From NCBI GenBank assembly GCA_963713865.1, contig OY970208.1:1056001-1120000 (forward strand): a DNA stretch of 64,000 nucleotides. Direction: 5' to 3'. Within the stretch, counting starts at the first letter, position 1. Each line of letters starts with the position of its first letter. Positions 3,001-44,848 of the stretch are shown in pieces. Below the pieces are notes generated by a model. That model saw only the letters and a list, made by a program, of their open reading frames with translations. It was not told where the DNA came from and ran no database searches. The translations under genes were made by a program, and so were the position numbers. Origin of the DNA: an uncultured candidate division Zixibacteria bacterium (GTDB lineage Bacteria; Zixibacteria; MSB-5A5; RBG-16-43-9).

Positions 3001-3124
3001 GTTTAAAGGTGGTCCAGCACCAAACCCCAGACAGGCTGGAGATGCTAATAGAGATAAAAAGGTTACTGTAGCTGATTGTGTCTATCTTATCAATTATCTT
3101 TTTAAAGGAGGCCCTCCTCCGTAA
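2..3124 (+). CDS. 5'-truncated large surface protein: ten ~95-100 aa Ig/cadherin-like (tandem-95 type) repeats plus C-terminal dockerin
   Basis: Ten repeats of N.PP.L..I....V.EG..L...V.A.DPD; C-terminal duplicated Ca-binding motif GDANGNG...[15 protein letters not shown] / GDANRDKK...[20 protein letters not shown] is open at the window edge. Confidence 0.85.
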
Positions 3125-3739
3125 GCCCTTGTTTTAAAAAAGGTTTCTCTGAAGTTCAATATAGGAAACAGATATACATATAATCTATTGTCCAAAGGAT
3201 ATAAGGTTATTTACTCCCAGGTTTAGGGAATTTTTAACCCCTTTTATAATACAGTTACCTTAATCTTAATAATTACAGGGGATAAGGATAACCCTTAAGC
3301 CTTATCTTATTATCCAGGTTAAACTTTTAAGAAAATTTGTCGATTAGAATATTAATTAAAAATTGATAAAAAGAATAAAAAAAAGACTTGACAAATTGAG
3401 TAAAAAAGTTTAATTATAAAGTGGTAAGTCTTGGGTGTTAGTCAGGTTGGATTTTAAGATCAAAGAGTTAAGCCGTAGAAGTTTTTCTCCAAAGAACTTC
3501 TCAATAGATATTTTAACTTTTTCCTAACTTAAAAGACCAAAGAGCCAATTTAATTGTTTGCAGGAGGAAAGGGAGTGAGGGAAAAGTTAGGCAGGTTTTT
3601 TTATTAAAGCAGGAGGAGGAAATCCAAGCAGAAGTTTTAAAGATAATACTTTTCATTAATAAAGGAGGTGGTGTTAAGGTTTAATAATTATTTATCTAAA
3701 AATAGGAAGTAGTTTTAGTAACCAAGAAAGGAGCAAAAG

Positions 3740-6700
3740 ATGGCGAAAAGAGTTTTAGTCTTAGCCTTAAGTTTATTGCTGATAGCAAGCTTAAGTGCTT
3801 TTGGGGCGAAGAAGCCGGTGGAGAAGAAAGTGCTCCCGAGCATGGAGAAAATGAAGCCCGTAGATGAGAGTATAATCTACCCGTATCGTACTACGACCAC
3901 TTTAGAACCCAAGTTCTTCTTCCCGATGACAGATGACACCGTAGGCTGGACTTATTATGACTACCAGGAAAACAGTTCCGCACACCGCCGGATAGCCTAT
4001 GATTATCTGGGGAATCTGCATTTCGACTGGATGAATATGGTGGGTCCGGATTTGAGCGAGAACCGCTATATCGATTATAATGCTCGTTACTCAGATGGAA
4101 GCTGGCTAAATCCTGGCGCGGGTATGCATGTTACTAAACCCACAGGCAGAGGCGGGTATTGTGGTTTAGATATACTGCCGAATTCGAGGGAGGTATTAGC
4201 TTTCCACGATGTTGGCGGCGGGTACTATTCCTGTCTTGCCATAGAGAAGACCACTCCTGGATTAGGGCAGTTCAACATATTCGATGTTAGAGACGGAGTC
4301 CAAGGCAGTGTAGCTGACGACCATAGTACCTGGCCTATGATTGGCACTTCCAAAGCAGGGCATAGTGGCACCACTTATATTCATATAACTAATTTTGCTC
4401 AGAATGATTATGCTGGTTACCAGCGCTGTTATGAGAAAGCACCGGATTCTCTGATATGTCAATCACCGGGATGGACTGATACCATAAGGGTTAAGGCTGG
4501 TTATCTGCTGGAAGCTAACAGCAAAAACAAACAACCCTATATGTTTAACGGCACTCAAAATGGCAATGATGGCAAGATCACTTATATTGCAGCGCCGGTA
4601 GTTACTTCTCCTACTGGATCAGGACACGTGGCTATAATCTGGTATGATCAGACAGCTTCTGTCTTTTATCAGGGAGAGATGTATTATATAGAGTCCACCA
4701 CTGACGGGGATGACTGGATGGCCGGGAACAACCTAACACCCATAAAGATAACCAATTGGGGCGCCAATAACTGGAAAGATTACGATTTCTATTACACTGA
4801 GATAGCTGCAGTGTACGACTATAATAATGTGCTCCATGTATTCTTTACTGCCTCTGCTACTGGAAACGAAGGAGAAGATCTAAGTTTATTCCACTGGAGT
4901 ACAGCTACTGGTGATACCCTTCACAAAGTGGCTTCTCGGTATGTAGCCGCAAATTGCGGTGCTTGGGATTACGGTATTGCCAAGCCGACCGCGGGTGTAG
5001 AATATCAGGTGGGAAATGCGGCTTACAATTATCTCTATGTGGTTTACGCCGGGTACAAGGATGACGACGTATCTTTAGCTGGTTATGCCAATGCGGATAT
5101 ATATAAGAAAGTATCTGCCACTGGCGGCCGGAACTGGGGACCTGAGGTGAACCTGACCAATACCAATACAGATGGCTGTGACAACGGGGACTGCGAAAGT
5201 GAAGCTTGGCCTACAGTAGCCGAGAGGGTGGGAGACTATATGTATGTCAGCTATCTTTATGATTTAGATGCCTCTGGTGCTATCACCCCTGAAGGTGGAT
5301 ATACCCTCGATCCGTTTCGCTACCTGAAGGATCCACGCGAGTTAGTTCCAGCAGTTGCCGGTAAGGACTTTACCCCAAGTATGATGATTAGTCCGGTCAG
5401 ATGGGCTAAAAACGGAGCAAGCAAAGCTGATGCTTTTACCTTTGCGAATACTGGTACAGCGACTTTGTATGTGAAGATCAGTACACCTCCCTATGTAACT
5501 GCAGTTCCGGCTCAATTCAGTATCCTACAGCTTTCGGCACCGGTGAATGTTAACCTGACCTTCAGCGGAGCCGGGAAACAAGATACCTTCTTAGTAGGCC
5601 AGATAATGATTGAGTCAAACAATGGCTTATTAGGTGGTGGAGAGACCTATGTAGATACTGAGTATGCGAAGTTCCACTTTGTGGTAACTGACACCTTCTA
5701 CTATCCTGAATATGACACAGCAAATTTACATGTTAGAGCGGTCGTTTCCAACGTAGGGAACATAGGACACCAGGAAGATGACGATCTGACCGGCAACGGG
5801 ATGAACTATAATGGATATAATTATCTATTTGAGTTTACTCCGGTTTTTGTTACTGATGATATCGGTGGAGAGGGTCCTGTGGGCTTTACCTGGTTACATG
5901 ATCACCATGACTTTTTACCCGAAGCTCACGTGAAGTCGCAGACTTATAACTATCTATTGAGCACATCATCGTCCGTAAAGGTCAAAGTAATATACGATAA
6001 GTTTAGCCTTGTTTTTCCAGGACGTCTTACTTCTCATGGCGACTTCCACTCATGGTGGAGCTACTGGACTAAGTATTCTCAGGTCATGGTCTTCGACTCC
6101 CCTCCGGTTATTCTGGTATACAACTGGTGGTACTGGAATCCGCCTCCGATATGGTGGGATGATCTTACCGGATCTACAAATCCGCAAGGAGGTTATTTTG
6201 GCATAGCGGCTGACTGGGATATCCAAGCTAAACATGGCTCAGATAACTGGGGTGGTTATGATGAGGATTTGAATCTAATCTGGCAGCAGGGAGACAGTGC
6301 TGAGTTCCTGAACTACTATGGTGCCTTCCAATTCTTAGATGCGGAAGTAACGCAAGGTGGCTCTACCATCTACCACGGCACCGCACCGTTGAGCGCTTAC
6401 GTTTTGAACAACGCTAAACAGCTCTATCCTTATAGCGGGTATAATGATGATTCCCTGTATAAGTTTATGTCAACAACTGGCTTTTCAGTTGAGCAGGAAG
6501 ATTCTATGCAGGATAATAATATGCTGATGTCAATGGCTCAGGTAACTGCTCCTGATCCCACCACTGTAATTGAGCTGAAATATTTATTACTGGTAACTGA
6601 TAAGGGTTTAGATAGTTTGAAAGCCAACGCGGCTAAGTTATCTGAGATAATTGCACAGTGTACTTCTTTATCTGGAGATGCCAATGGTGATGGAAAGATT

Positions 6701-6883
6701 TCGGTTTCGGATGTGGTATATCTTATAAATTATCTATTCAAAGGTGGTCCGCTACCGGTTAATCCAAGTGATGCCAATGGCGATGGAAAGATTTCGGTTT
6801 CGGATGTGGTTTACCTGATTAATTACCTGTTTAAGGGCGGTCCTCCTCCTGTAACTGGTCCTATACCAATTTGGTGTGAGTGA
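3740..6883 (+). CDS. Secreted 1047-aa protein of unknown function with C-terminal dockerin
   Basis: SD AAGGAG; signal peptide MAKRVLVLALSLLLIASLSAFG; two identical [25 protein letters not shown] repeats. Confidence 0.85.
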   Translation: MAKRVLVLALSLLLIASLSAFGAKKPVEKKVLPSMEKMKPVDESIIYPYRTTTTLEPKFFFPMTDDTVGWTYYDYQENSSAHRRIAYDYLGNLHFDWMNMVGPDLSENRYIDYNARYSDGSWLNPGAGMHVTKPTGRGGYCGLDILPNSREVLAFHDVGGGYYSCLAIEKTTPGLGQFNIFDVRDGVQGSVADDHSTWPMIGTSKAGHSGTTYIHITNFAQNDYAGYQRCYEKAPDSLICQSPGWTDTIRVKAGYLLEANSKNKQPYMFNGTQNGNDGKITYIAAPVVTSPTGSGHVAIIWYDQTASVFYQGEMYYIESTTDGDDWMAGNNLTPIKITNWGANNWKDYDFYYTEIAAVYDYNNVLHVFFTASATGNEGEDLSLFHWSTATGDTLHKVASRYVAANCGAWDYGIAKPTAGVEYQVGNAAYNYLYVVYAGYKDDDVSLAGYANADIYKKVSATGGRNWGPEVNLTNTNTDGCDNGDCESEAWPTVAERVGDYMYVSYLYDLDASGAITPEGGYTLDPFRYLKDPRELVPAVAGKDFTPSMMISPVRWAKNGASKADAFTFANTGTATLYVKISTPPYVTAVPAQFSILQLSAPVNVNLTFSGAGKQDTFLVGQIMIESNNGLLGGGETYVDTEYAKFHFVVTDTFYYPEYDTANLHVRAVVSNVGNIGHQEDDDLTGNGMNYNGYNYLFEFTPVFVTDDIGGEGPVGFTWLHDHHDFLPEAHVKSQTYNYLLSTSSSVKVKVIYDKFSLVFPGRLTSHGDFHSWWSYWTKYSQVMVFDSPPVILVYNWWYWNPPPIWWDDLTGSTNPQGGYFGIAADWDIQAKHGSDNWGGYDEDLNLIWQQGDSAEFLNYYGAFQFLDAEVTQGGSTIYHGTAPLSAYVLNNAKQLYPYSGYNDDSLYKFMSTTGFSVEQEDSMQDNNMLMSMAQVTAPDPTTVIELKYLLLVTDKGLDSLKANAAKLSEIIAQCTSLSGDANGDGKISVSDVVYLINYLFKGGPLPVNPSDANGDGKISVSDVVYLINYLFKGGPPPVTGPIPIWCE

Positions 6884-6917
6884 GCTTTCCTTCAAGGCAG
6901 GTTAGAGATTTAAAGTT

Positions 6918-6956
6918 TATGGGATTCCGTTCCAAAACGGAGTCCCATAACTTTTT
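6918..6956 (+). terminator. Intrinsic terminator
   Basis: Stem TATGGGATTCCGTT/AACGGAGTCCCATA followed by a T-run, 35 nt after the stop. Confidence 0.75.
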
Positions 6957-7421
6957 AAAAGAGGGGTTAAACTTTAAAGAAGATGCGTTTCTTTGATGGT
7001 AACATCTAAGTTAGCTCTTCTCATAAGATTATTCCCTTGCTTGTTTTTATTAAGGTTCTAATTTATGGTAATAATAGTCAAACTTTTTCGTATTTTATTA
7101 TAGCTATACGTTAGGTATAACAACGTTCCTTGAAATGTGGTTAGTTATAGATTTGTTTGGAGGGAGAACCCATTCTATTCTGTGTAGCGTTAAAGGTGCT
7201 AACTGGGTTAGTATTCTCTCAGCGTTAAATATGGTTTATCTAATCAACTATTTATTCAGAGGTTGACTTTCACCAGGTTGTGAAAAAATAAAAAAATCTT
7301 AATTTTTTTGTTGACAAATTATCTGGCTTTGATTATATACTTAAAAAGTGAGTATAATTAAGTAGAAACATCTTTAATATTTTAACGTTAAGGAGGTGGT
7401 TTGGCATATACTATAGCTAAA

Positions 7422-23535: not shown

Positions 23536-23677
23536 CCCTCCCTTGATGGCCGATTAAGCTTTACGGCTCGTAGAGGAGGGATAAAGGGAGGGTGAAATTT
23601 GTTTTTATTTTCCCTCTCCCTAACCCTCTCCCACAAGGGGAGAGGGGATTTTTTTGCTCGATTAATCGAGCAACTAC
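23536..23677. repeat. Repeat cluster: CCCTTGATGGGAGGG repeat interrupted by the 26-nt mini-element (23549-23574), a CCCTCTCCC palindrome, and a REP overlapping the OPT stop
   Basis: Comparison with the uninterrupted copy at 19824-19856; GCTCGATTAATCGAGCAACTAC at ~23656. Confidence 0.8.
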
Positions 23678-25644
23678 ATCCTTTGTTTCTCAGGCTTGCC
23701 CAGCCGGGTAGAATTCCACAAAAGGAAAATGATAATGGCAAAACAGATCAGGGCTAACCAGGGTCCGAAACTACCGGAAAGGCTCACTGCTTCATGCGAT
23801 TCCCAAAAAGCAGCATAACTCGGTACAGAGGCAATAAGGAAAGCAATTAAAACCCCGACTAAAGCATCACCTGCTACCAGCCCTGAGCTGAACAGGATTC
23901 CGTTCCCTTCCCTTTCTTTATACTGATGTTCTTTGGACAATTTCTGCACTATAAGAGCGATTATCCCTCCAGCCATAATCGGGGTGGAAAGGTCCAAAGG
24001 CAGATACAAACCGATGGCAAAGGGCAAAGATGAAACCCCTAAAAGCTCAACTGTTAAAGCTATCATCGCTCCGGCAATTATATAGAGCCAGGGAATACCA
24101 CCGGTCATAACCCCCTGAACCACGGTTGCCATCACATTAGCCTGGGGGGCTAAAAGGGGTACAGGATGAGCATCGCTTTTGACAAATCCAAAAGCAGAAT
24201 TTAGAAGAAAAACTGTAAACCCCATAAAGATAGCCGGGAAAATCAATCCCACAAACTCCATCAACTGCTGGCTTTTCGGAGTTGAGCCCAGGAGATAGCC
24301 GGTTTTTAAATCCTGAGCGATATCCCCGGACATACATACTGCTATGCAAACCACCGTGCCTATAGTCATAACTGTGACCATCCCTTTAAAGCCGGACACT
24401 CCAAAAGCTAAAAGGACTAAACTGGTGACTAAAATTGTAGCTAAAGTCATTCCAGAGACCGGAGAAGATGAGCTCCCCACAATTCCCACAATTCGGGCTG
24501 CCACGGCTACAAAGAAGAAGCCAAAGATTACGATCAGTAATGTTCCCAAGAAATGAAGATTTGTTCCAGGGTAGACCCAGATCAACAAAGTAGCTAAAAG
24601 GGAACCAAATAAAACCACATACATCGGAAGGTCCTGGTCAGTTCTAAGCTTCTGAGGCTGTCCTGATTTCTTCTGAGTTATTTCTTTTACTCCTCCAGCA
24701 AAAGAGTGGACAATAGCAGGAATAGCTTTAGCTAAGCTGACAAAACCTCCTAATCCTACTGCTCCCACTCCTAAAAATTTTATGAAATTGTTTCTGATCT
24801 CCGAGGGGGTCATCTCTGAGATAAGCTTAGTTGCTGGTGGAACTAAATTTGGCATATATTGTCCCAAGTAAGCGATCAAAGGGGCTATACCCAAATAACC
24901 TAATACTGCACCTGCCAGCATAAGGGCGGAAGTTCGTGGACCTATGATATAACCCACTCCTAACAGGGCTGGGGTAGCGTCGATTCCTACATTAGCTCCC
25001 TTGAGGAAGGGAAGGTTATAATTGGGAGTCTCGGGCCAGAGCCTGATACCGCCCATTAAAGTCTTGTATAAAGCTGAAAATCCTATACCAAAAAATACAG
25101 TCTTAGCTTTACTTCCTCCTACATCCCCGGCTTTTAAAATCTCGGCGCAGGCGGTCCCTTCAGGGAATCTCAATCTTCCATGTTCTCTAACAATCAGATA
25201 CCTTCTTAAAGGGATCATAAACAAAATCCCTAAGGTACCCCCCAGGATGGACAAAAAGATTATATCTAAATTTGAAATAGGATGAGAGAAACCAGAAAGG
25301 GTCTCATTCCAGATGAAAAAAGCCGGGATGGTGAAGATAATTCCTGCAGCTAAGGATTCACCAGAAGAGCCTATGGTTTGAACGATATTATTCTCCAAAA
25401 CCGTTCCCGTTTTGAAAATCCCTCTTAAAACTGCCATAGAGATTACTGCCGCAGGGATAGAGGCAGAAACAGTCATACCCACTTTTAAACCTAAGTAAGC
25501 GTTAGCTACTCCAAAGACAACGGCGATGATGGCACCCAGGATAATCGCCCTCAGGGTAAGCTCCGGTATCTTTTCATGAGCTTTTATATACGGCTCAAAC
25601 TGGTTTTGGTTCGGTTCAACCTTTTTTGGTTCAGGACTTCTCAT
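23674..25644 (-). CDS. OPT-family oligopeptide transporter
   Basis: ELTLRA, YLGLKVGMTVSASIPAAVIS, ENNIVQT, FPEGTACA, QDLKTG, APQA; many TM helices. Confidence 0.92.
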   Translation of the reverse strand: MRSPEPKKVEPNQNQFEPYIKAHEKIPELTLRAIILGAIIAVVFGVANAYLGLKVGMTVSASIPAAVISMAVLRGIFKTGTVLENNIVQTIGSSGESLAAGIIFTIPAFFIWNETLSGFSHPISNLDIIFLSILGGTLGILFMIPLRRYLIVREHGRLRFPEGTACAEILKAGDVGGSKAKTVFFGIGFSALYKTLMGGIRLWPETPNYNLPFLKGANVGIDATPALLGVGYIIGPRTSALMLAGAVLGYLGIAPLIAYLGQYMPNLVPPATKLISEMTPSEIRNNFIKFLGVGAVGLGGFVSLAKAIPAIVHSFAGGVKEITQKKSGQPQKLRTDQDLPMYVVLFGSLLATLLIWVYPGTNLHFLGTLLIVIFGFFFVAVAARIVGIVGSSSSPVSGMTLATILVTSLVLLAFGVSGFKGMVTVMTIGTVVCIAVCMSGDIAQDLKTGYLLGSTPKSQQLMEFVGLIFPAIFMGFTVFLLNSAFGFVKSDAHPVPLLAPQANVMATVVQGVMTGGIPWLYIIAGAMIALTVELLGVSSLPFAIGLYLPLDLSTPIMAGGIIALIVQKLSKEHQYKEREGNGILFSSGLVAGDALVGVLIAFLIASVPSYAAFWESHEAVSLSGSFGPWLALICFAIIIFLLWNSTRLGKPEKQRM

Positions 25645-25818
25645 ATTCCTCCTCTTAGCTTAAAATTTGAAAGATCAGTTTTCAATAATTACCCAAAGCT
25701 AATATTATGAAAGCTCTGAGTCAAGTTTTTTCAGTTTGGAGGGATTCAAAATTTTAAACCCCTACAAATTGTTTTCTTGTTGGCGACCCTGAAAGGGTCA
25801 CACTTGTATATTGAATAT

Positions 25819-26017
25819 TATGTTTATATTTTACAGGTGAATAAGGGATATACCCTTCACCCAATGGTGGAAGGGAACCTTGCCGACAGATCGTGTCGCA
25901 CTTGGGCTAAAAGCTCGTTCGTAGCTTGGTCGTCGGCAAGGTCCCTTGTGCCTCTGCAAGCTCGAACAGTCGAATGGTTAAAAAGACCGCATAGCAAGTA
26001 TGGGCTACCAGAGGCAA
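25819..26017 (+). ncRNA. Bridge RNA (predicted; ends approximate)
   Basis: 5' hairpin 25836-25861; target-binding loop in stem 25871-25887/25932-25947 with guides GTCGCACT and TCGTAG; donor-binding loop in stem 25949-25956/26009-26016 with guides ACAGTCG and CAAG. Confidence 0.82.
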
Positions 26018-26049
26018 GTTAATTAAATTATACTAAAGGAGGAGTAGTT

Positions 26050-26976
26050 ATGCAACAGATAGTTTGCGGGATTGACGTTAGTTCAGAGGAGCTTGAAGCT
26101 TGCATTCTTTTGGCAGATGATACTGCTAATCCACACCGCCGGACCTTCAGCAACACCAGGAAAGGTATTAAGAAGTTCATATCTTGGTTAAGGGGTAACA
26201 AAGTAGAGTTGGTAGTTATGGAGGCATCAGGAGGGTATGAGCGGGTTTGTAGGAGGATGTTAAGAGAGTTAGGGATTCAGGCTCATGTAGTTAATCCTGC
26301 ACGGGTAAGGCATTTTGCCAGGGGGATAGGAAAACTGGCGAAGACGGACAAGATTGATGCCCGGGTTATAGCCAGATTTGGACAGGTGGTGAAGTTAGAG
26401 GAGTTAGGGGAGATAAGTGAGATGGAGTTGGAGATTCAGGAGCTTATCAAAAGGCGGCAGGAGTTGCAGGAAATGGTAGTGGCAGAGAAAAACAGGCTTC
26501 GTATAGCAGAGAGGGAAAAGGCAAAAAGCCTTAAAAGGATAATCAAGGTATTGGAGAAGGAGCTTGAGCTGATGGATGAGAGGATAAAGGAATTAGCTCA
26601 AAAAGATGATCAGATTATGCGGAAGGTTGGATTTTTAAGAAGGGAAAAAGGGATGGGATTTATCACCGCTATAAGTTTACTTTCTTGTTTACCTGAGTTG
26701 GGGAGAGTAGATAGGAAAAAGATATCTGCGTTGGCGGGGGTGTCACCTTTCAACCGAGAGAGTGGCAAGTGGAAAGGTAAAAGCTTCATAAGTGGAGGAC
26801 GTGGACTCATAAGAAAGATCCTGTATATGCCTGTCTTGGTAGCAATAAGATTTAACCAGAAGCTAAAAGAGTTTTATCAGAGGTTATTAGCTTCAGGAAA
26901 GGCAAAAAAAGTAGCCGTGGTTGCGGTGATGCGCAAATTACTAATTATCTGTAATGCCATTTTAAAAAATGCTTGA
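26050..26976 (+). CDS. IS110-family recombinase/transposase
   Basis: RuvC-like DEDD residues in GIDVS, VMEASG, KTDKID; Tnp-domain serine in PFNRESG; GGRG, AVMRKLL; SD AAGGAGG. Confidence 0.95.
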   Translation: MQQIVCGIDVSSEELEACILLADDTANPHRRTFSNTRKGIKKFISWLRGNKVELVVMEASGGYERVCRRMLRELGIQAHVVNPARVRHFARGIGKLAKTDKIDARVIARFGQVVKLEELGEISEMELEIQELIKRRQELQEMVVAEKNRLRIAEREKAKSLKRIIKVLEKELELMDERIKELAQKDDQIMRKVGFLRREKGMGFITAISLLSCLPELGRVDRKKISALAGVSPFNRESGKWKGKSFISGGRGLIRKILYMPVLVAIRFNQKLKEFYQRLLASGKAKKVAVVAVMRKLLIICNAILKNA

Positions 26977-27086
26977 TTTTCAAGACAGTCGCTACGATGT
27001 TCAGGTACATTTAAAAAACTTTCTCCTTGCTTTCTCTTCTGAAAAACTTAAATTCTTTAAAGGACGTTCATCCAAGGAGATGTTTT

Positions 27087-28775
27087 ATGACCCATAAAGG
27101 TTACAGGTTTTTTTGCGGTTCGGTCTTAATCTTTTTTCTTTTTACAGCCTTTACTTTCGCTCAAGAGAGGAAAAGCAGTAAAAGTTTTAACGATTATCTT
27201 GCTTTTAGCCATTTCGTAAATGGAACCTTATATGAGCTTTCCGGGGACTTAAATTCAGCCGTTCAGGAATATAAAAATGCCCTGAATTATTCACCTGAGT
27301 CCTACACCCTGAAATTTTCCCTGGCTCAGGATTATTTCAAGTTAGGAGATATTGAGAATGCTTTAAAAGAGGTGGAAAAGATAGAGCCTAAAACGGGTGA
27401 AGCCTGGGCTTTTATGGGAGATTGTTACCGTAATCTGAATAAAAAAGATAAAACCATCGAGTCTTACAAAAGGGCAGTTCAGACTGATTCTAATCTTATA
27501 GCACCTTACTGGTATCTTGCCCAGGACTGGCAACAAGCAGGAAAAATTGATTCAGCCATCTATGCCTGGAGAAAAATAGCTTCAGACTCTCCGTTTAGTA
27601 AATCGATCTATTTGAATTTAGGATTTCTTTTAGAAACGCAAGGCAGGTTGGATGAAGCACTGCAGGAGTATAAAAGAGCTTCAAATGTGGATCCCTACGA
27701 CAAAAAAGCCCTTTTGTCCATAGGGGGAGTGTATGAAGCGCAAAAGGATTTCACTCAGGCAATAAGAGTATATCAGGAAGCCTTAGCCCAGGATACAACC
27801 GATATACTCGTTCGCACCAAACTGGTTCAGCTTTATTTTAACTCCGGAGACAGGGAAAAAGCTTTAGATGAAGGAATTAAACTATATGAACTTCGTCCAC
27901 AGGATAAGAATGTCAAAAGGTTATTAGGAGGAATCTATCTTTCCCTGCAAAAATACCCTCAGGCAGAGACTCTTTTCTCTGAATATATTAAAGCTGATTC
28001 AACTGACCCTGGCGGTTATCTTTTTTTAGGCAGAACTTTCTTAGAAGAAAAAAAATATCCACAGGCTAAAACTATGTTCCAGAGAACTATCGCCCTGAAC
28101 GATTCATTGTCCGGAAACGGATCCGTAGGACAGGAAGCCTGGGTAAATTTAGGAATAACTTACTTAGAGGAAGATAGCCTTTTAAAGGCAAAAGAAACAT
28201 TTTCACAGGCACTTCCTAAAGTTGAGAGGAAAGACGAAATTTATTATTTTTTGGGTCTGGTTTATTCCAGACTGAAGGAATTTCCTCAAGCGATAGAATT
28301 TTTACTGAAGGCTGATTCTCTCAATCCGGAGAACACTCAGGTCCTTTTCCTTTTGGGCTCAGCTTATGAACAGAGTAAAAACTTTGAGCTATCGGTCTCT
28401 ACTTTTGAAAAGGTTTTATCAAAGGACCCGGAAAATGATGAAGCTTTGAACTACTTAGGTTATATGTTAACAGATAAAGGGGTAAGGTTAGATGAAGCTT
28501 TAAAAATGATTGAAAAAGCTTTGGAGAAAAAGCCGGACAATGGTGCCTATTTAGATAGTTACGGCTGGATTTTGTTCAGACTGGGAAAAGTAAATGAAGC
28601 TGAAATCCAGATAAGGAAAGCATTAAAGACCCAGTTTAAAGATGCAGTGCTCTATGAACATTTAGGTGATATCTTAGATGCCTCAGGTAGAAAAGAAGAA
28701 GCAAGGCAACAGTGGGAAAAAGCTTTGGAGCTTAACCCTGAGAACGAAAAGATTAAAGCGAAATTGGGGAAATAA
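27087..28775 (+). CDS. Exported multi-TPR protein
   Basis: ATG 27087 after AAGGAG; signal peptide; many TPRs; C-terminal ALNYLGY...YLDSYGW...EHLGD. Confidence 0.85.
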   Translation: MTHKGYRFFCGSVLIFFLFTAFTFAQERKSSKSFNDYLAFSHFVNGTLYELSGDLNSAVQEYKNALNYSPESYTLKFSLAQDYFKLGDIENALKEVEKIEPKTGEAWAFMGDCYRNLNKKDKTIESYKRAVQTDSNLIAPYWYLAQDWQQAGKIDSAIYAWRKIASDSPFSKSIYLNLGFLLETQGRLDEALQEYKRASNVDPYDKKALLSIGGVYEAQKDFTQAIRVYQEALAQDTTDILVRTKLVQLYFNSGDREKALDEGIKLYELRPQDKNVKRLLGGIYLSLQKYPQAETLFSEYIKADSTDPGGYLFLGRTFLEEKKYPQAKTMFQRTIALNDSLSGNGSVGQEAWVNLGITYLEEDSLLKAKETFSQALPKVERKDEIYYFLGLVYSRLKEFPQAIEFLLKADSLNPENTQVLFLLGSAYEQSKNFELSVSTFEKVLSKDPENDEALNYLGYMLTDKGVRLDEALKMIEKALEKKPDNGAYLDSYGWILFRLGKVNEAEIQIRKALKTQFKDAVLYEHLGDILDASGRKEEARQQWEKALELNPENEKIKAKLGK

Positions 28776-37398: not shown

Positions 37399-37542
37399 TG
37401 AGTGAAGCACTAGAATCATTTTTCCCTTTTCGCACGGGGCGTCAAATATTTTCAGGGTGACAAATGAAAAGGGACAAGCTACATTTAGCTGTGACTACGT
37501 AAAAAGTAGAAACGATTCTATCCAATCAGCAAAAAGATGTTT

Positions 37543-39753
37543 TTAGCAGGGTGGGGGTCCGCCTTTGAAAAGGTAATTTATTAAATATATTATGTCTGCG
37601 ACATTCACACTTCCATCGCAGCTGGTATCAGCTTTCTCTAAAGGAGAAGGCGCAGGTCCTCCTTTATAGAGATAATTAATCATATTGACAACATCTGAAA
37701 CCGTGACTTTAGAATCGCCATTGGCATCCCCTCGTATAAACGGTATCCCCGAATTCACTTTCAAGGGTAGAGTCTTGGTGTTGCTTTTTTGAGGACTGCT
37801 GGAATCTTTTACTAAAACCGAGCAGGTGAAAGTCCCGGTATCCGCGGGCACACCTGAGATTATACCGGTTAAGGAATCCAAGGTCAAATTGTAAGGAAGA
37901 GTCCCACTCCAGAAATATGGGGGTGTCCCGCCTTTAGCTATCAGGGTATCGGTATAGGGATAATCGGAGACTCCATCTGTCAGTGAAGTTGAGACGATAT
38001 TCAGACCATAACTTACATTGCTCGAGTATTTCAAAATCCAGTTATCTTTGTCTAAAAGCAGGGAAATCGGCTGGAAAAGCAGTTCAAACTGGAAGTCCTG
38101 GTTTCTCTGATTGTTGAAAACTACAATGGTGGTATCACCCAGCGGTGTAGAGATGGTTATATCCACGGGCATAGTGAAAACCAGGGGTGGAGTGGACTGA
38201 ATTTGATCTATATGCAGATAGACCAAATATGTTCCACCCGGGTTCTCATACATCCAGGAAACCTGATAATTTGGCCGGTAAGTCCCGTAAATCCAATCCT
38301 GAAAAAGCCAACTTAAATCTATACCAGAAACTTCCTCACACACTCCCTCGAAATCTGCAGTCAAAGCTGTGCCATAGGCAAATCTTGGGTCCGAATAATA
38401 GGCTCGTAAGCTCCCAAAGAAAGCTGAATCTCCAACTACATGTCTCAACATATGTAAAACCCAGGCAGCTTTGTCATAAACGATATTGCTGAAAATCTGG
38501 CTTACGTTTGTGGTATCCTGCACATAGATGGAACCTCCCTTGGTATAATCCATATAACCCATATAGGTATGATAGTACCCTGTTCCATATATATACTCAA
38601 AATACAAAGCCTCGCAATAGCTGGCAAAACCCTCATTTAGCCAGATATTATGCCAGTCTCCGCAAGTTATATAATCTCCCCACCACTGATGAGATAATTC
38701 ATGAACGATGACATAAGGGTCATACCAGGAAGCAAGTAGAGAGGTGCAAGTCTGGTGCTCCATACCTCCGCTCCAGGGGAATTGTGCCATCCCGTATTTT
38801 TCCCCGATGAAAGGGTATTCCCCAAAGGTTCTAGCGAAAAAGTCAATTGCTCCCGGAGTTACCGCATAGCCAGCAACTGCCTGAGAATAGTTCTCTGGGT
38901 AGACAAAATACCTGACCTCCATTGAATCGGTAGGGGAATAATGGTAATAGTCAGAAAAGATTGTATAATTAGTGATAGCAACCGAGATGAGGTAAGTGGT
39001 TATCGGGTAACTCTCATGCCATTTATAGGTTTTGGTTCCATTGCCGTTGTCAATCACTACCCTTAAGACACCATTGGAGGCAACTATGAGGTTAGAAGGT
39101 ATAGTCACGTTTATGTCCGCAGAATCAGCTTTATCAGAGGGATGGTCCTTGCAGGGCCACCAGGTCCGGGCATAATAGGGTTCACTCAAAGAGGAGATGA
39201 TCGGCGCACTTGGAGTTCCGTGATATCTAAAAGCAAAAGCCAGGAAACCGCCTTCAACCGGATGTCCATGATAATATACCGTGATGAGAAAATTCTCATT
39301 CAAAGTATATGCCCTATCCAGAGTTATATTGATAAGATTAGAGGAGTGAGTATAGGAAAGACTTGTTCCTGCCATCTTTATGGAGTCAACCACCATATTA
39401 TCAAAAAGGTCTAAGGAAACAGTATTTAAGCTCAAGATCTTGCTTTGAGCCAACATCTTTACCGCCCCATAGATTACCTTAAAGGTAGTATCGATATTCA
39501 AATCCAGACCATAATAGATGGCATCGAAATCCCCCTGATTTGTCAAAACTTTGGCAAGATACGCCTCTCTGGCCATAGCCAGGGCTTTTGCTTTGCCCTG
39601 ACCTAAAATCTTATGCCCTTCGCTCGGAGGGATAGAAAAGACCGGTTCTGGTTGGGAGGAAAATTTTTCCCTGGCTCCCTGCTGAGCAAAACTTAAGTTA
39701 AAATGAATTGATAAAAAAATAAACAGAACCCAGACGAATGATTTTTTATACAT
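37543..39753 (-). CDS. Secreted M1-family Zn aminopeptidase with Ig domain and C-terminal dockerin
   Basis: GGMEH exopeptidase motif; HELSH-X18-E (WLNEGFASY); YDKAAWVLHMLR; GDANGDSKVTVSDVV...YLYKGGP / [25 protein letters not shown]. Confidence 0.9.
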   Translation of the reverse strand: MYKKSFVWVLFIFLSIHFNLSFAQQGAREKFSSQPEPVFSIPPSEGHKILGQGKAKALAMAREAYLAKVLTNQGDFDAIYYGLDLNIDTTFKVIYGAVKMLAQSKILSLNTVSLDLFDNMVVDSIKMAGTSLSYTHSSNLINITLDRAYTLNENFLITVYYHGHPVEGGFLAFAFRYHGTPSAPIISSLSEPYYARTWWPCKDHPSDKADSADINVTIPSNLIVASNGVLRVVIDNGNGTKTYKWHESYPITTYLISVAITNYTIFSDYYHYSPTDSMEVRYFVYPENYSQAVAGYAVTPGAIDFFARTFGEYPFIGEKYGMAQFPWSGGMEHQTCTSLLASWYDPYVIVHELSHQWWGDYITCGDWHNIWLNEGFASYCEALYFEYIYGTGYYHTYMGYMDYTKGGSIYVQDTTNVSQIFSNIVYDKAAWVLHMLRHVVGDSAFFGSLRAYYSDPRFAYGTALTADFEGVCEEVSGIDLSWLFQDWIYGTYRPNYQVSWMYENPGGTYLVYLHIDQIQSTPPLVFTMPVDITISTPLGDTTIVVFNNQRNQDFQFELLFQPISLLLDKDNWILKYSSNVSYGLNIVSTSLTDGVSDYPYTDTLIAKGGTPPYFWSGTLPYNLTLDSLTGIISGVPADTGTFTCSVLVKDSSSPQKSNTKTLPLKVNSGIPFIRGDANGDSKVTVSDVVNMINYLYKGGPAPSPLEKADTSCDGSVNVADIIYLINYLFKGGPPPC

Positions 39754-39959
39754 GGGCACCTCTTTTCTTGAGTTTTATCTTCAGGTTTCAATTATATCTT
39801 CGGGTATTTTAAATCAGAAATCAACCAGAAAGAATTAAATCTATAACATTTCTTATACGTTTCAACTCTCTTGACTATTAGGGTTCATCGATTGAAATTT
39901 TATTGGAAACTGATAGAGTAAGGCAAGGATTGTTGATCTTATTTGGTGCTTTCGTTAAG

Positions 39960-40010
39960 AAAATCCGGTGAGGTTTAAACCTCATGTCGGTTCAATTCCG
40001 ACCTCCGGCA
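39960..40010 (+). pseudogene. Orphan 3' half of a tRNA-Leu(YAA)-like gene (att-site-like)
   Basis: AAAATCC, long variable arm TGAGG/CCTCA, T-arm GTCGG-TTCAATT-CCGAC, acceptor strand CTCCGGC-A; no 5' half and no CCA. Confidence 0.7.
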
Positions 40011-40352
40011 TTGATTTTATGGGCTTTTGGACTTCCCCTCAAGGACTTGGCAATTACCCCGAATTTTCGCAATAACCCATAAAGGCCCAAGATAACCCGC
40101 GGAAACCCAGACTAACTTGGCACAAATTTGGCACAGGGGTGGCGGGTAGCGTTTCCCTACCCTGTCTGTTCAGAATTACATCTGCCTGATAGAATTTCTA
40201 CAGGATTATTAGTGGAGATTTTAATCGAGTGAGCCTTAACTTGCCCAGGGGGTCAAAATATTTTCAGGTTGGAAAAAGAAAAGGGACAGGCTTCATTTGT
40301 CTGTCCCTTTGTTAATAGGTAATTTTCCTATCTGGTTGATAAGAACTTCTTT

Positions 40353-42224
40353 TTAGCTACAGGGTGCTGGTCCACCTTTGAAAAGATAATTGATTAGATA
40401 AACCACATCGGAAACTGTTGTTTTATCATCACAGTTGACATCCCCTAAATACACAGGGTCAGGTGGAGGTCCTCCTTTGAACAGATAATTAATCAAGAAA
40501 ATCACATCCGAGACAGTTGTTTTCTTATCCATATTCGCATCTCCGCGCAGATATTCGATTACTGGATAAGTAAACGTATTGACCTCTCCTGGTGGTGGAA
40601 TGGGGAAATTTTGTGCCAGAGGTTTATCCTCGTTTCCATCTAATTTTATGGTTATAGAATAGTGTCCTGTATCTGCATCAGGCTCTCTTTTGACTTTAAT
40701 AAGATATTCACCTAATAAGGGATTAGGTATAGTCACCTTATCCTGGTCATTAGTTGTATCGTAAGTGGCATCTAAGATGGTGTTAAAATCTATTCCGATT
40801 GAGTCTCCGCTTGGGTCGGTTACGATTAAATCCACTGGTGAGTAAGCCTTAAAATACAAGGTATCAGCTCTCTGTCCTATATGGAAATATTTGATAGTGG
40901 TGTAATCAGGGCCTGTTCCACTACCCGTGCTATATCCTGTGACATAGACATTTCCAGAACCATCAACAGCTATATCAGAAGCGATATCAGCAGAATTACT
41001 CTCCCCGTTGTATGTTACTATCCAGTGAAGGTATCCATTCAGGTCATACTTTAGAGTAACATAATCGAAATCTGTTAAATTCCCTCTGCTCCATCCAGCC
41101 ACATAAACATTGCCTTCACCATCAATGGTTATTGCTTGACCCCCGTCGCTATTGTTATCCGGATCGTTTTCTCTTCTTACCCAGGCAGTATCTCCATCCG
41201 GATGATATTTAATGGTGACGATGTCGTCGTTTATTCCACTGCCTCCCGCGCTAGATCCGGTCACATAGGCATTTCCAGAACCGTCTACAGACATAGCAAG
41301 AGCATCATCATAGTCGTTAGCCGGTCCATCATATCTTTGTACCCAGGCAAGAGACCCATCGGAATAATACTTTACGGTGGTATAGTCATAAGAAGAAGCG
41401 GATAGACTTGTTCCGGTCACATAGACATTACCAGCACCATCTACACCTATTGCCTTAGCATAATCCGTGGAATCTCCTGTTCCATTGTATCTTCTTACCC
41501 AGGCAGGATCACCATTGGGGTAGTACTTAATGGTGGTATAGTCATAGTCTGACCCTCCGCCGTAACTATGCCCGGTAACATAGACGTTGCCAGAATCATC
41601 TACGGCTATGGCATTAGCATAATCAGCGCCGTTTGCCGGGCCATTATATCTTCTCACCCAATTCTCATTTCCAAGTGCATCATACTTTACCGTTGCATAG
41701 TCATGGCCGGTTGAATCACCGTAACTATAGCCAGTCACATAGACATTTCCAGGACCGTCAACTGCCATGGCAGTAGCGTGGTCGTTTAAATTTACAGTTG
41801 AGTTATTATATTTCCTCACCCAGGCAGTATCTCCTGTGGCAGCATTATACTTTATGGTAACATAGTCATAGGAAGTTACAGCGTTAACGCTCCATCCGGT
41901 TACATAGACATAGCCAGAACTATGTGTGACTATAGCTTGAGCTTTATCTTCGTTGTCTGCTGTTCCGTTGTATGTTTTCACCCAGGCAACAGCCCCATCA
42001 GGATAATATTTGACTGTAGCATAATCCGGTAGAGGTTCCGTCCCAAGGGGAGTAACATAACCCGTAACGTAAACATTGCCAGAGCCATCTACAGCCAGGG
42101 CATTGGCTACATCCGTCCCATGTGAGTAGTCATACCTTCTCACCCAGGCAGTATCAACTGGTTGAGCGAACGCAGGCACACTAACTAAAAGCATAACCAC
42201 CAAAATGATTAGCTTCTTAAACAT
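40353..42224 (-). CDS. Secreted SBBP-repeat beta-propeller protein with C-terminal dockerin
   Basis: Eight AVDGSGNVYVTG-type repeats; signal peptide; [26 protein letters not shown]. Confidence 0.88.
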   Translation of the reverse strand: MFKKLIILVVMLLVSVPAFAQPVDTAWVRRYDYSHGTDVANALAVDGSGNVYVTGYVTPLGTEPLPDYATVKYYPDGAVAWVKTYNGTADNEDKAQAIVTHSSGYVYVTGWSVNAVTSYDYVTIKYNAATGDTAWVRKYNNSTVNLNDHATAMAVDGPGNVYVTGYSYGDSTGHDYATVKYDALGNENWVRRYNGPANGADYANAIAVDDSGNVYVTGHSYGGGSDYDYTTIKYYPNGDPAWVRRYNGTGDSTDYAKAIGVDGAGNVYVTGTSLSASSYDYTTVKYYSDGSLAWVQRYDGPANDYDDALAMSVDGSGNAYVTGSSAGGSGINDDIVTIKYHPDGDTAWVRRENDPDNNSDGGQAITIDGEGNVYVAGWSRGNLTDFDYVTLKYDLNGYLHWIVTYNGESNSADIASDIAVDGSGNVYVTGYSTGSGTGPDYTTIKYFHIGQRADTLYFKAYSPVDLIVTDPSGDSIGIDFNTILDATYDTTNDQDKVTIPNPLLGEYLIKVKREPDADTGHYSITIKLDGNEDKPLAQNFPIPPPGEVNTFTYPVIEYLRGDANMDKKTTVSDVIFLINYLFKGGPPPDPVYLGDVNCDDKTTVSDVVYLINYLFKGGPAPCS

Positions 42225-42283
42225 CTTTCCTCCTTTTTCAGGTTAGGGGAAGCAAGGTTCTTAACATTTATTTATTCAATAAA

Positions 42284-42311
42284 AGGATAATGCAAAAATA
42301 GGAAAAGTCAA
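42284..42311 (-). promoter_or_regulatory. Sigma-70-type promoter, duplicated upstream of 44491
   Basis: Minus-strand TTGACT-16 nt-TATCCT inside the conserved upstream block. Confidence 0.45.
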
Positions 42312-42616
42312 GCTAAATTCCTCTCACTAAACCCTAAGACAAGATACTCTTGACGGGTTTTGAAAGGTATAGTCCCAAAAAGGATCCTTTGGGATTCGAG
42401 AGGTGGGAGTAGCGCCCCTCTACCTCTATCTGTTCAGAATTACATCTGCCTGATAGAATTTCTACAGGATTATTAGTGGAGATTTTAATCGAGTGAGCCT
42501 TAACTTGCCCAGGGGGTCAAAATATTTTCAGGTTGGAAAAAGAAAAGGGACAGGCTTCATTTGTCTGTCCCTTTGTTAATAGGTAATTTTCCTATCTGGT
42601 TGATAAGAACTTCTTT

Positions 42617-44491
42617 TTAGCTACAGGGTGCTGGTCCACCTTTGAAAAGATAATTGATTAGATAAACCACATCGGAAACTGTTGTTTTATCATCACAGTT
42701 GACATCCCCTAAATACACAGGGTCAGGTGGAGGTCCTCCTTTGAACAGATAATTAATCAAGAAAATCACATCCGAGACAGTTGTTTTCTTATCCATATTC
42801 GTATCTCCGCGCAGATATTCTATAACCTGATAAGTAAATGTATCAAACTGGTCTGGGGGTGGAATGGGGAAATTTTGTGCCAGAGGTTTATCCTCGTTTC
42901 CATCTAATTTTATGGTTATAGAATAGTGTCCTGTATCTGCATCAGGCTCTCTTTTGACTTTAATAAGATATTCACCTAATAAGGGATTAGGTATAGTCAC
43001 CTTATCCTGGTCATTGGTAATATCATAAATAGCACCTGGTATAGTATTGAAATCTATCCCGATTGAGTCTTCGCTTGGGTCTGTTACTATTATATCCACT
43101 GGCGAGTAGGCAGTTATTTTTAGGATATCACTTCTCTGTTGTAGAGGTACATATTTGATAGTAGCATAGTCATAATCTGTCCCACTGCCGTAACTACATC
43201 CAGCCACATAGACATTGCCGGAACCATCTACCACCACTGCCGCAGTAGAATCTGAACCATTTCCCGGCCCATTGTACCTTTTTACCCAAGCCATGTCTCC
43301 ATTAGAATAATACTTAACAGTAGCATAATCAGTATAATAATGAGGCATACAGAAAATATATCCGGAAACATAAACATTACCAGAATTATCTATGGCTATT
43401 GCAGAAGCATAGTCATCCAAGTTGTCAGGCCCATTGTATCTTCTTACCCAAGCAGTATCTCCATTGGGATAATATTTCAGAGTAGCATAGTCCATATTCC
43501 AACGTCCTCTGCTATAGCCAGTAACATAAATATTGCCAGAATTATCTACGGTCATAGAAACAGCGTGATCATCCAAGGCCCAATCTATTCCATCGTATCT
43601 TCTAACCCAAGCAAGATCTCCATTGGGATAATATTTCAGGGTGGCATAATCATAATCTGTCCCACTGCCGTAACTCCATCCAGTCACATAGACATTACCT
43701 GAACCATCTACAGCTAAGTCGTAAGCTACATCCTCACCATTTCCCGGGCCGTTGTACCGTCTTACCCAGGCAGTATCTCCATTGGGATAATATTTCAGGG
43801 TAGCATAATCATAGCCTGTTACACTACCAATAGACTGACCAGTCACATAGACATTGCCAGAATTATCCACAGCTATGGCTTGGGCTATGTCGTCACTGTT
43901 TCCCGGTCCATTATATCTTGCTACCCATAGCTCATCCCCTGCAGAATCGTACTTTATAGTCACATAGTCACGATATGTCAGACTGTCGTAGCTAAGTCCG
44001 GTTACAAAAACATTCATAGAATTATCTACCGCTATTCCACGAGCCCAATCATCACCATTTCCTGATCCATTATATCTTCTTATCCAGGCGGTATCTCCGT
44101 TGGGGTAGTACTTTATCGTAGTATAGTCGTAATCTATTCCAATACCACCGTAACTGTATCCGGTTACACAGATATTATTATAACTATCCAAGGTTATAGC
44201 AGAAGCGCCATCAATGTAATTTGCTGGCCCATTATATCTTCTTACCCAGGCAGGGTCTCCGATAGTATTATACTTTATAGTAGCATAGTCATAATTTGTT
44301 CCAGTGCCACCGTAACTACATCCAGTAACATAGATATTGCCAGAATTATCTACTGCGATACCATTAGCATAGTCCCCACCGTATCCCAAGGGTCCGTTGT
44401 ACCTTCTCACCCAGGCAGTAACAAAGTCTTGAGCTAAGACGGGGATGCTTGACAAAAGAAGAACCAGCAGAATCATTAGCTTCTTAAACAT
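42617..44491 (-). CDS. Secreted SBBP-repeat beta-propeller protein with C-terminal dockerin (paralog of 40353..42224)
   Basis: Eight repeats; dockerin differs from the paralog by one residue. Confidence 0.88.
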   Translation of the reverse strand: MFKKLMILLVLLLSSIPVLAQDFVTAWVRRYNGPLGYGGDYANGIAVDNSGNIYVTGCSYGGTGTNYDYATIKYNTIGDPAWVRRYNGPANYIDGASAITLDSYNNICVTGYSYGGIGIDYDYTTIKYYPNGDTAWIRRYNGSGNGDDWARGIAVDNSMNVFVTGLSYDSLTYRDYVTIKYDSAGDELWVARYNGPGNSDDIAQAIAVDNSGNVYVTGQSIGSVTGYDYATLKYYPNGDTAWVRRYNGPGNGEDVAYDLAVDGSGNVYVTGWSYGSGTDYDYATLKYYPNGDLAWVRRYDGIDWALDDHAVSMTVDNSGNIYVTGYSRGRWNMDYATLKYYPNGDTAWVRRYNGPDNLDDYASAIAIDNSGNVYVSGYIFCMPHYYTDYATVKYYSNGDMAWVKRYNGPGNGSDSTAAVVVDGSGNVYVAGCSYGSGTDYDYATIKYVPLQQRSDILKITAYSPVDIIVTDPSEDSIGIDFNTIPGAIYDITNDQDKVTIPNPLLGEYLIKVKREPDADTGHYSITIKLDGNEDKPLAQNFPIPPPDQFDTFTYQVIEYLRGDTNMDKKTTVSDVIFLINYLFKGGPPPDPVYLGDVNCDDKTTVSDVVYLINYLFKGGPAPCS

Positions 44492-44848
44492 CTTTCCTCC
44501 TTTTTCAGGTTAGGGGAAGCAAGGTTCTTAACATTTATTTATTCAATAAAAGGATAATGCAAAAATAAGAAAAGTCAAGGTAAATTCCTGTCAGTTAGCC
44601 CTCAGACAAAAGACCCCTGACAGGCTTTAAGTAGGCATAGCCCCATATGGGAATTCTTTAGGATTCGAGGGGTAGCATCCCCTATACTTATCAGATTACT
44701 ATTTAGTTTAGCAGAGAGAATCTAAAGGTAATTTTATAGATAGAGATTACTGAAGAAGGTTTAACTAATTTCCATTTTGCTCCATTATTACTGCTAAAAA
44801 GTTCTTTACATCAATTATCTTATTAATTAAATTTATGAAGAATTTTGT

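Follow-up and report, generated by a model that had tools for sequence, protein, structure and literature searches.

The window, by which we mean the whole stretch of 64,000 nucleotides that was analysed, carries on its forward strand a 1189-bp insertion sequence of the IS110 family. A 245-nt non-coding left end (25805-26049) precedes the gene for a recombinase of 308 amino acids, and a non-coding right end of only 17 nt (26977-26993) follows it, a combination of long left and short right non-coding ends that is one of the marks of the IS110 group. The element and its immediate flanks comprise the following features.

25783-25801, + strand: REP-like hairpin GCGACCC-TGAAA-GGGTCAC in the left flank, its 3' arm continuing into the left target half
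25796-25804, + strand: left target half and core, GGTCACA-CT, at the junction common to three copies
25805-26993, + strand: IS110-family insertion sequence, 1189 bp, from the right donor end to the left donor end plus core
25807-25812, + strand: -10-like hexamer TATATT, a consensus match at a position conserved in relatives, predicted to be part of a promoter only once the right end joins the left end
26036-26042, + strand: ribosome-binding site AAGGAGG
26050-26976, + strand: recombinase gene, 308 aa, with a DEDD RuvC-like domain and a Tnp domain (D9, E58, D100, D103 and S238), from Pfam, NCBIfam and the IS621 alignment
26973-26978, + strand: -35-like hexamer TTGATT in the right end, a consensus match 17 nt from the -10-like hexamer across the circle junction
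26985-26993, + strand: left donor ACAGTCG and core CT
26994-26998, + strand: right target half ACGAT

The insertion sequence, its boundaries and its copies

The assignment of the protein is clear, with matches to PF01548 (94.4 bits, 7.9e-27) and PF02371 (55.3 bits, 8.6e-15), both over the curated cut-offs, and to the NCBIfam model NF033542, 'IS110 family RNA-guided transposase' (211.4 bits, with the cut-off at 140). It aligns over its full length with the IS621 transposase (PDB 8wt6, E 1.5e-36) and with ISCro4 (9t56, 1.4e-34). In the alignment to 8wt6, D9, E58, D100, D103 and S238 lie opposite chain residues 13, 62, 104, 107 and 243, the chain numbering being offset by two from the native IS621 residues, such that the four catalytic acidic residues (D, E, D, D) and the conserved serine of the composite active site described for IS621 (D11, E60, D102, D105 and S241; PMC11208158) are all present in the window protein. 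The original prediction called this a compact protein of 308 aa; the length is right and is typical of the subfamily, whose members are of ~305-320 aa, the IS621 PDB chain being of 328 residues.

The genome, assembled as one contig of 2.72 Mb, holds three copies of the element that are one base apart over 1189 bp, the second being located at GGTCGCACT. Their left junctions read ...GGGTC(A/G)CA-CT|TGTATATT... in two copies and ...GGTTCGCA-CT|TGTATATT... in the third, and their right junctions ...ACAGTCG-CT|ACGA... in two copies and ...ACAGTCG-CT|ACAT... in the third; all three are preceded by a hairpin of the type GCGACCC-TGAAA-GGGTCGC. Both same-genus genomes (G208 and G207) have the corresponding empty site, ...GGGTCACA-CT-ACGAT..., with a single CT, and in the uninterrupted same-genus site ...GGCGACCCTGAAAGGGTCACA-CT-ACGAT... 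the left and right flank matches overlap by CT alone. The copies and the same-genus empty sites thus place the element at 25805-26993, and both junctions have a CT core (25803-25804 and 26992-26993). A two-nucleotide core at both junctions and a scarless empty site, in an element without long terminal inverted repeats, are further properties of the IS110 group. Taking protein, boundaries and the RNA described below together, we consider it very probable that the insertion sequence at 25805-26993 is intact, belongs to the IS110 group and moves by recombination under the guidance of a bridge RNA.

A metagenome contig (L085) carries a copy whose last 430 bp are identical to those of the window element and which lies in another genomic context, with the right flank CT|ACGAAACC, giving a fourth right junction, CT|ACGAA; the possibility that this flank represents a polymorphic site of the element's own genome was considered and rejected, the two having only short repeats in common. 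The other two genomic copies (L002 and L003) have both lost the same base (AAA to AA at 26812-26814), which leaves a frame of 263 aa, whereas the frame is open in the window copy and in L085; with two of the three genomic copies frameshifted, only the window copy is able to supply the protein. The deletion in two copies reflects either movement of the broken copy in trans or a coincidence of two assembly errors. The element is present in none of the 8 other genomes of the host family, and a search of 285 genomes of the same phylum gave a best match outside its own genome of 43% identity (same family, 0 of 8). This absence, together with the near-identity of the copies and the intact empty sites in sister genomes, suggests recent arrival and movement.

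A predicted structured RNA with four guide segments in the left end

Folding of 25806-26049 gave a minimum free energy of -83.3 kcal/mol, compared with -61 +/- 4.1 kcal/mol for 200 shuffles (z -5.44), none of which folded as stably. The fold comprises a 5' stem-loop followed by two modules, each with an outer stem, an internal loop and an inner hairpin, which is the layout described for the IS621 bridge RNA (PMC11208158); the three stem-loops originally proposed thus correspond to helices at 25836-25861, 25871-25947 and 25949-26016. An Rfam 15 scan of 25600-27100 with E up to 10 returned four weak unrelated matches, none of them bridge-RNA-like, and Rfam may have no such family. The elements of the RNA are as follows.

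25836-25861, + strand: 5' stem-loop of the RNA, from the fold
25871-25947, + strand: target-binding module, outer stem 25871-25893 with 25927-25947 and inner hairpin 25903-25917; the relatives' stems covary
25894-25902, + strand: left target guide (LTG), UGUCGCACU, in the top-strand sense of the target
25918-25924, + strand: right target guide (RTG), UUCGUAG, the reverse complement of CT-ACGAA
25925-25926, + strand: handshake guide CU of the target loop, in which C25925 can pair with left-donor G7
25949-26016, + strand: donor-binding module, outer stem 25949-25964 with 26001-26016 and inner hairpin 25975-25989; the relatives' stems covary
25966-25972, + strand: left donor guide (LDG), ACAGUCG, then AA, identical to 26985-26991 and without core pairing
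25991-25998, + strand: right donor guide (RDG), AUA-G-CAAG, with CAAG opposite CTTG, G25994 bulged and AUA opposite TAT
25999-26000, + strand: handshake guide UA of the donor loop, in which U25999 can pair with left-target A7

In the bridge-RNA scheme (as described in PMC11208160), left guides pair with the bottom strand and read as the top strand, and right guides pair with the top strand and read as its reverse complement. The segments of the window RNA match the target GTCGCA-CT-ACGAA in the first loop and the joined ends ACAGTCG-CT-TGTAT in the second, the two complementarities by which the IS110 group is recognized. With respect to the individual sites, the LTG agrees with GGTCACA-CT of the window at 7 of 9 positions plus one G:T wobble and with GGTCGCA-CT of copy L002 at 8 of 9, and the RTG matches 6 of 7 positions at the window copy and all 7 at the metagenome copy L085. 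In a chance check with 20,000 mononucleotide shuffles of the left-end interior, each single guide found a match in 256-1261 shuffles and two or more guides in 278; all four were matched in none.

The segments singled out by the original prediction are all in place, namely GTCGCACT at 25895-25902; TCGTAG at 25919-25924, the reverse complement of CTACGA at 26992-26997; ACAGTCG at 25966-25972, identical to 26985-26991 and followed by AA at 25973-25974; and ATAGCAAG at 25991-25998, which has one G more than the reverse complement of CTTGTAT (25803-25809). Its overall reading as a bridge RNA is likewise upheld, in that the gene, boundaries, fold, four guides and strand logic fit the published IS110 scheme.

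The 12-mer read from the guides, GTCGCACTACGA, has 28 exact unoccupied sites in the 2.72-Mb genome, where about 0.3 would be expected by chance on both strands (our own arithmetic), and 153 sites if as many as two mismatches are allowed, most of them tails that follow a hairpin. The 12-bp target is the tail of a REP-like hairpin; the hairpin type of the left flank precedes many of the 28 exact empty sites, and several different hairpins stand 5' of the same 12-bp tail in the element's own genome. The proposal that the LTG fits the perfect-palindrome form of the REP holds, given the 28 exact sites, which also contain GTCGCACT, and the second genomic copy. The repeat counts indicate that the RNA is tuned to the repeat consensus and not to the slightly degenerate copy in the window. 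With the target specified over about 13 bp, the 28 exact unoccupied sites and the two sister-genome empty sites constitute natural controls.

A 92-nt piece of the left end of a related element lies elsewhere in the genome (G000:C1:596639-596744). Its left junction, ATGCCC-CT|TGTATATT, is preserved, and the piece extends through the conserved GATCG and nine further bases (...GATCG-TTTGCCCCT), ending in the exact LTG register, beyond which the sequence is ACAATATTT, the right half of a second repeat family; TGCCCCTACAA, a repeat tail, has 21 exact occurrences in the genome and GCCCCTACAA has 48. The DNA that codes for an LTG is a copy of the left target half and core, so the recombinase could act on its own guide gene. 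A preprint describes half-matching substrates as sufficient for IS621 recombination, with emphasis on the donor half. In such an event the CT core would be the point of recombination between guide-coding DNA and the right junction, and with the remainder of the element expelled, a 92-nt fragment of the type seen would be left. That the recombinase does act on its own guide-coding DNA is a tentative and rather doubtful proposal with which the fragment is compatible; if it is true and holds generally, IS110 elements would have in self-targeting an inherent route to decay, which in engineered systems would also give rise to off-target deletions.

Covariation of stems, guides and flanks among relatives

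A scan of one genome per species gave 501 relatives, from which 80 loci were kept (35-46% protein identity, mostly ~309-320 aa); the 76 usable upstream regions of these form 40 sequence families, in which both loops align well. A metagenome protein scan found relatives 37-48% identical and one partial 99% copy. Closer relatives, with 66-76% protein identity, were not among the matches of that scan; they are protein records (P0002-P0013) and lie outside the covariation sets. RNAalifold, applied to a MAFFT alignment of the 40 upstream regions, recovered only 4 pairs, in the inner donor stem, and a 28-pair structure was therefore written by hand and a covariance model built from it. The independent set for this model consisted of 95 unseen loci (80 metagenome and 15 same-phylum), where the model gave, apart from the window itself, 91 matches that lie immediately 5' of the gene. 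An RNA of a 5' hairpin and two modules in the left end is thus conserved upstream of the gene in relatives of 35-48% protein identity.

The stems covary in both sets, with the proviso that the alignments were fitted to the hand-written structure and that the stem statistics lean towards it: in the seed loci 81.2% of cells are paired, compared with 66.8% in shuffles, with a covariation score of 0.361 against 0.143 (0 of 500 shuffles), and in the independent set the values are 81.7% against 64.1% and 0.416 against 0.138 (0 of 500), with two-sided changes at all 28 pairs. The control with slid partners is the fairer test of covariation, and it is clear, giving scores of at most 0.142 in the seed loci and at most 0.125 in the independent set. 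The check by folding and covariance with homologues that accompanied the original prediction has therefore come out in its favour on both counts (fold z -5.44, stems covarying in relatives).

Whether the guides follow the flanks was assessed with right boundaries set solely by an exact match to the element's own LDG downstream of the gene, which avoids circularity, and with the five non-core positions of the RTG compared to the five bases after the core. In the seed set (28 of 40 families used, the 12 without a usable right junction being left out) the RTG matched its own flank at 4.43 of 5 positions and those of other families at 1.85 (19 distinct guides; 0 of 20,000 permutations), and in the independent set (72 of 91 loci used, 19 without a usable right junction being left out) at 4.25 of 5 and 1.59, respectively (48 distinct guides; 0 of 20,000 permutations), it being understood that shared ancestry among the relatives makes such permutation counts overstate independence and significance. 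The diversity of the guides speaks against an effect of phylogeny alone. The core at the right junction is CT in 71 of the 72 independent loci, and the left donor ACAGTYG-CT is conserved in the subfamily.

On the left side, automatic boundary calls from the RDG failed or were ambiguous at many loci, so no position-defined test was applied to left boundaries; the LTG was instead compared to the upstream flank by a procedure that is free of alignments and boundaries and excludes the guide region itself. Across 37 families the LTG matched its own upstream flank at 7.03 of 9 positions, compared with 5.87 for foreign guides (0 of 5000, a count to which the same reservation as to shared ancestry applies), and the best match usually abuts the first bases of the element, the own LTG being the single best guide in only 7 of the 37 families.

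The relatives also put the two apparent irregularities of the donor loop into context. In IS621 the LDG pairs over eight nucleotides, A123-C130, with A131 as linker, and the LTG over nine (PMC11208158). In a set of 150 distinct related RNAs, the seven-nucleotide LDG is followed by CC in 63, CA in 32, CT in 22 and AA in 5; CT being found in only 22 of 150, full core pairing on the LDG side is not the rule, and an LDG that pairs with neither core base, as in the window RNA, is a rare minority variant (5 of 150). The AA in place of CT that had been marked as an oddity is accordingly a minority state of the family and not a defect. By contrast with the LDG side, the core complement AG is kept in the right guides in 145 and 141 of the 150 RNAs. 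The extra G relative to the expected ATACAAG is present too, but is no anomaly: nine RNA nucleotides of the IS621 RDG are described as discontiguously paired to seven donor bases (PMC11208160), with U159 and U160 flipped out (PMC11208158), and the RDGs of the relatives have a bulge of 1-2 nt at the same place, such that the extra G in the window RDG is the expected bulge.

In IS621, nucleotides 3' of the right guides are described as pairing, after strand exchange, with position 7 of the other DNA, in a handshake (PMC11208158). Among the 150 related RNAs the first handshake nucleotide of the target loop pairs with donor position 7 in 134, and that of the donor loop with target position 7 in 94 by Watson-Crick pairing and in 27 more by wobble; none of 5000 shuffles reached so high a level of non-cognate pairing. 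Watson-Crick pairs with the cognate position 7 are depleted, to 11 of 150 in one case and 0 of 150 in the other; for U25999 of the window RNA a G:U wobble with donor G7 is still possible. The second handshake nucleotide gave no signal across the 150 RNAs.

Proposed life cycle, alternative readings and relation to known systems

In IS110 elements the circular form is described as rebuilding a promoter across the core (Durrant et al., PMC11208160). In the window element, joining of the ends gives TTGATT-17-TATATT, which agrees with the consensus at 9 of 12 positions, the promoter preferences of the host being possibly different; in the linear region promoter-like sites are not enriched (4 compared with 2.4 +/- 1.4 expected). 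Among the 21 families with both boundaries, a TTGAnn hexamer, as a match to the consensus motif, starts 21 nt before the right end in 18, which is 17 nt before the right-end core, with a spacer of 16-17 nt to the left-end hexamer; in one further family it starts 22 nt before the right end. The predicted junction promoter would put the start of the transcript near 25819, which is the left coordinate of the RNA as originally drawn.

By analogy with IS621, the element would exit as a circle in which the right end (...TTGATT...ACAGTCG-CT) is joined to the left end (TGTATATT...), a joint that would create a promoter with its -35 element from the right end and its -10 element from the left end. From a start near 25819, a transcript of ~200 nt, comprising the 5' hairpin, the target loop and the donor loop, would be made and bound by the 308-aa recombinase. 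The guides of the target loop would jointly specify about GTCGCA-CT-ACGAA, the tail of a REP-like hairpin, and ACAGUCG and AUA(G)CAAG of the donor loop would read the circle junction ACAGTCG-CT-TGTAT. After strand exchange, C25925 and U25999, each 3' of a right guide, would pair with position 7 of the other DNA, and exchange at the CT core would insert the element with no duplication beyond the core. For transcription, binding of the RNA by the protein and catalysis we rely on homology with IS621; overall, the sequence data argue that this is a real bridge-RNA element and is probably active.

It is conceivable that the structured left end is a leader that controls translation or stability of the transposase, with the protein itself picking the target and the guide-like matches incidental. 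The RNA does immediately precede the gene on its strand, the ribosome-binding site being 20 nt past the last stem, and older work, as recounted in PMC11208160, took the non-coding ends of such elements to be regulators of recombinase expression. Such a leader would not, however, account for four guide matches that occur together in none of 20,000 shuffles, nor for the manner in which the guide positions change with the relatives' flanks as the stems stay paired by compensatory changes; the homologue IS621, moreover, is described as requiring its RNA for recombination in vitro (PMC11208160), and we regard the leader interpretation as very unlikely. The matches might alternatively be subterminal repeats at the DNA level, that is, copies of end and target sequence read by the protein and not RNA guides. 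Sequence identity by itself cannot separate an RNA guide from a DNA repeat, and the transcript of the RNA is predicted, but the segments lie in internal loops of helices that covary as RNA, they keep the published strand asymmetry (left guides in sense, right guides as the reverse complement), the RDG has a 1-2 nt bulge, as is described for the IS621 RNA-DNA heteroduplex, and it is the non-cognate DNA, not the cognate, with which the handshake positions pair. A model in which the protein reads its sites predicts none of loop placement, strand asymmetry, bulge and handshake, which counts against repeats of this kind, and we consider them exceedingly improbable.

With the left-end RNA read as a bridge RNA, there is a question as to whether the element is now a readable relic that is no longer mobile in its own genome. 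Two of its three copies are frameshifted, the LDG is without core pairing, and the 8 other genomes of the family and both of the genus lack the element. Set against this are the open 308-aa frame of the window copy with all five catalytic residues, the three copies a single base apart over 1189 bp, the copy with an identical last 430 bp in another genomic context (L085) and the empty site retained in sister genomes, observations that together point to recent movement and make loss of mobility improbable.

Comparison with IS621 of E. coli (PMC11208160, PMC11208158; 8wt6) reveals the same two domains and catalytic residues over a full-length alignment, and, with regard to what is described for that element, an RNA in the left end that has a 5' hairpin, a target loop and a donor loop, bottom-strand pairing of the left guides and top-strand pairing of the right guides, a CT core, a REP-type target, a discontiguous RDG, the handshake position 7 and a promoter rebuilt across the circle junction (a consensus motif in the case of the window element). 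The two are nonetheless distant in sequence, their relationship being known by the alignment with E 1.5e-36, and they differ in detail: the RTG of the window RNA pairs over 7 nt, compared with 4 in IS621 (G77-G80), the RDG bulge is of one nucleotide as opposed to two (U159 and U160), the LDG covers 7 nt and neither core base, whereas that of IS621 covers 8 nt including the first core base (A123-C130), and the target is GTCGCA-CT-ACGAA, as compared with ATCAGGCCTAC.

Other known systems are related in particular respects. For ISPpu10 of Pseudomonas putida (10.64898/2026.03.19.712850) the IS110 target is described as adjoining the GC-rich stem-loop of a repeated intergenic sequence, a hairpin reported to raise efficiency there, and the three insertions of the window element, together with many of its empty sites, likewise follow a hairpin. 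The IS1111 group, with its seekRNA (Siddiquee et al. 2024, PMC11187229), is described as sharing the DEDD transposase family and RNA-guided choice of target; in IS1111 elements the RNA is described as lying in a long right end, and the subterminal inverted repeats as being of 7-17 bp (PMC11208160), a layout that we considered and rejected for the window element, in which the RNA lies in the 245-nt left end and the right end is of 17 nt. Closest is an unnamed IS110 subfamily of ~309-320 aa (Rhizobium, Hoeflea, Pirellula, Anaerolineae and metagenomes; L005-L164), which has 35-48% protein identity to the window recombinase, the same RNA model upstream, and the ACAGTYG-CT left donor and the position of the split promoter motif in common with it; the window RNA differs from it in a longer outer stem of the donor loop and in a spacer with its own ribosome-binding site.

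Bridge RNAs are stated to be predicted in 85.7% of catalogued IS110 elements (Durrant et al., PMC11208160), at which rate an element such as that in the window is to be expected. As an example of the mechanism described in 2024 it is clear but ordinary, with small variations in the donor loop; the subfamily may already be in the supplementary tables of Durrant et al., and standard NCBI annotation (NF033542) already calls the protein an RNA-guided transposase. Knowledge of the mechanism is unchanged. The overall results add one more cleanly documented natural bridge-recombinase system, with a donor loop that has a one-nucleotide bulge and an LDG without core pairing, which could serve as an orthologue for probing how much variation in donor-loop geometry is tolerated.

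Surroundings of the element in the window

The IS110-family insertion sequence (25805-26993, plus strand) sits between two genes, which were labelled by reading of their translations:

window 23674-25644, minus strand: gene for a 656-aa membrane protein
window 27027-28775: TPR-repeat gene

The membrane protein gene is on the strand opposite to the element, and about 160 nt separate its end from the insertion site. Elsewhere in the window (40160-44630, 2940-7280 and 37540-42770) there are long minus-strand arrays of coding repeats, with a unit of about 159-162 nt, and 40162-40461 is duplicated exactly, over 300 nt, at 42426-42725. Within these repeat regions 83-nt units recur that look like paired calcium-binding, dockerin-like motifs.

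Truncated copies and related loci

A one-base deletion, AAA to AA (at the position of window 26812-26814), which cuts the recombinase to 263 aa, is common to two of the three genomic copies of the element, although these two are at different sites in the genome:

G000:C1:196580-197791, minus strand: deletion-bearing copy
G000:C1:2436478-2437691, plus strand: deletion-bearing copy

Either the intact copy mobilised the two truncated ones in trans, or the shared deletion is an artefact of assembly.

Some of the related elements (loci L051, L058, L060, L063, L064, L071 and relatives) have their left donor sequence some 140-150 nt past the stop codon, versus about 8 nt, which makes their right ends long even though the RNA keeps its place upstream of the gene. 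At several related loci the covariance model of the upstream RNA has a second match in the flank:

L059 131-288, minus strand: second RNA-model match
L045 2538-2683, minus strand: second RNA-model match
L052 126-279, plus strand: second RNA-model match
L020/L023/L025 831-975, minus strand: second RNA-model match

These second matches suggest neighbouring or nested elements of like kind.

Repeat families and a left-end fragment

The sequence GTCGCACTACGA has 28 exact and 153 near matches in the genome, constituting a large REP-like repeat family, the constant tail of which, GGGTCGCACTACGAAA, stands behind several differing hairpins (GCGACCCTGAAAGGGTCGC, CCGTTAATAGGAAAAGGGTCGC and CGGGACAAGCAGGGTCGC). 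A second family takes the form TAGGGGC…GCCCCTACAA. The genome also has the remnant of a related element:

G000:C1:596639-596744 (locus L004, about 1500-1606): related IS110 left-end fragment, 92 nt

The fragment, which is 77% identical to window 25803-25894, stops exactly at the core of its own left-target-guide register (TTTGCCCCT), beyond which is a junction to ACAATATTT, the right half of a second repeat family, whose sequence TGCCCCTACAA occurs 21 times exactly. The genome yielded no intact version of the element from which the fragment came. Possibly the guide-coding DNA of the fragment's element was acted on by that element's own recombinase.
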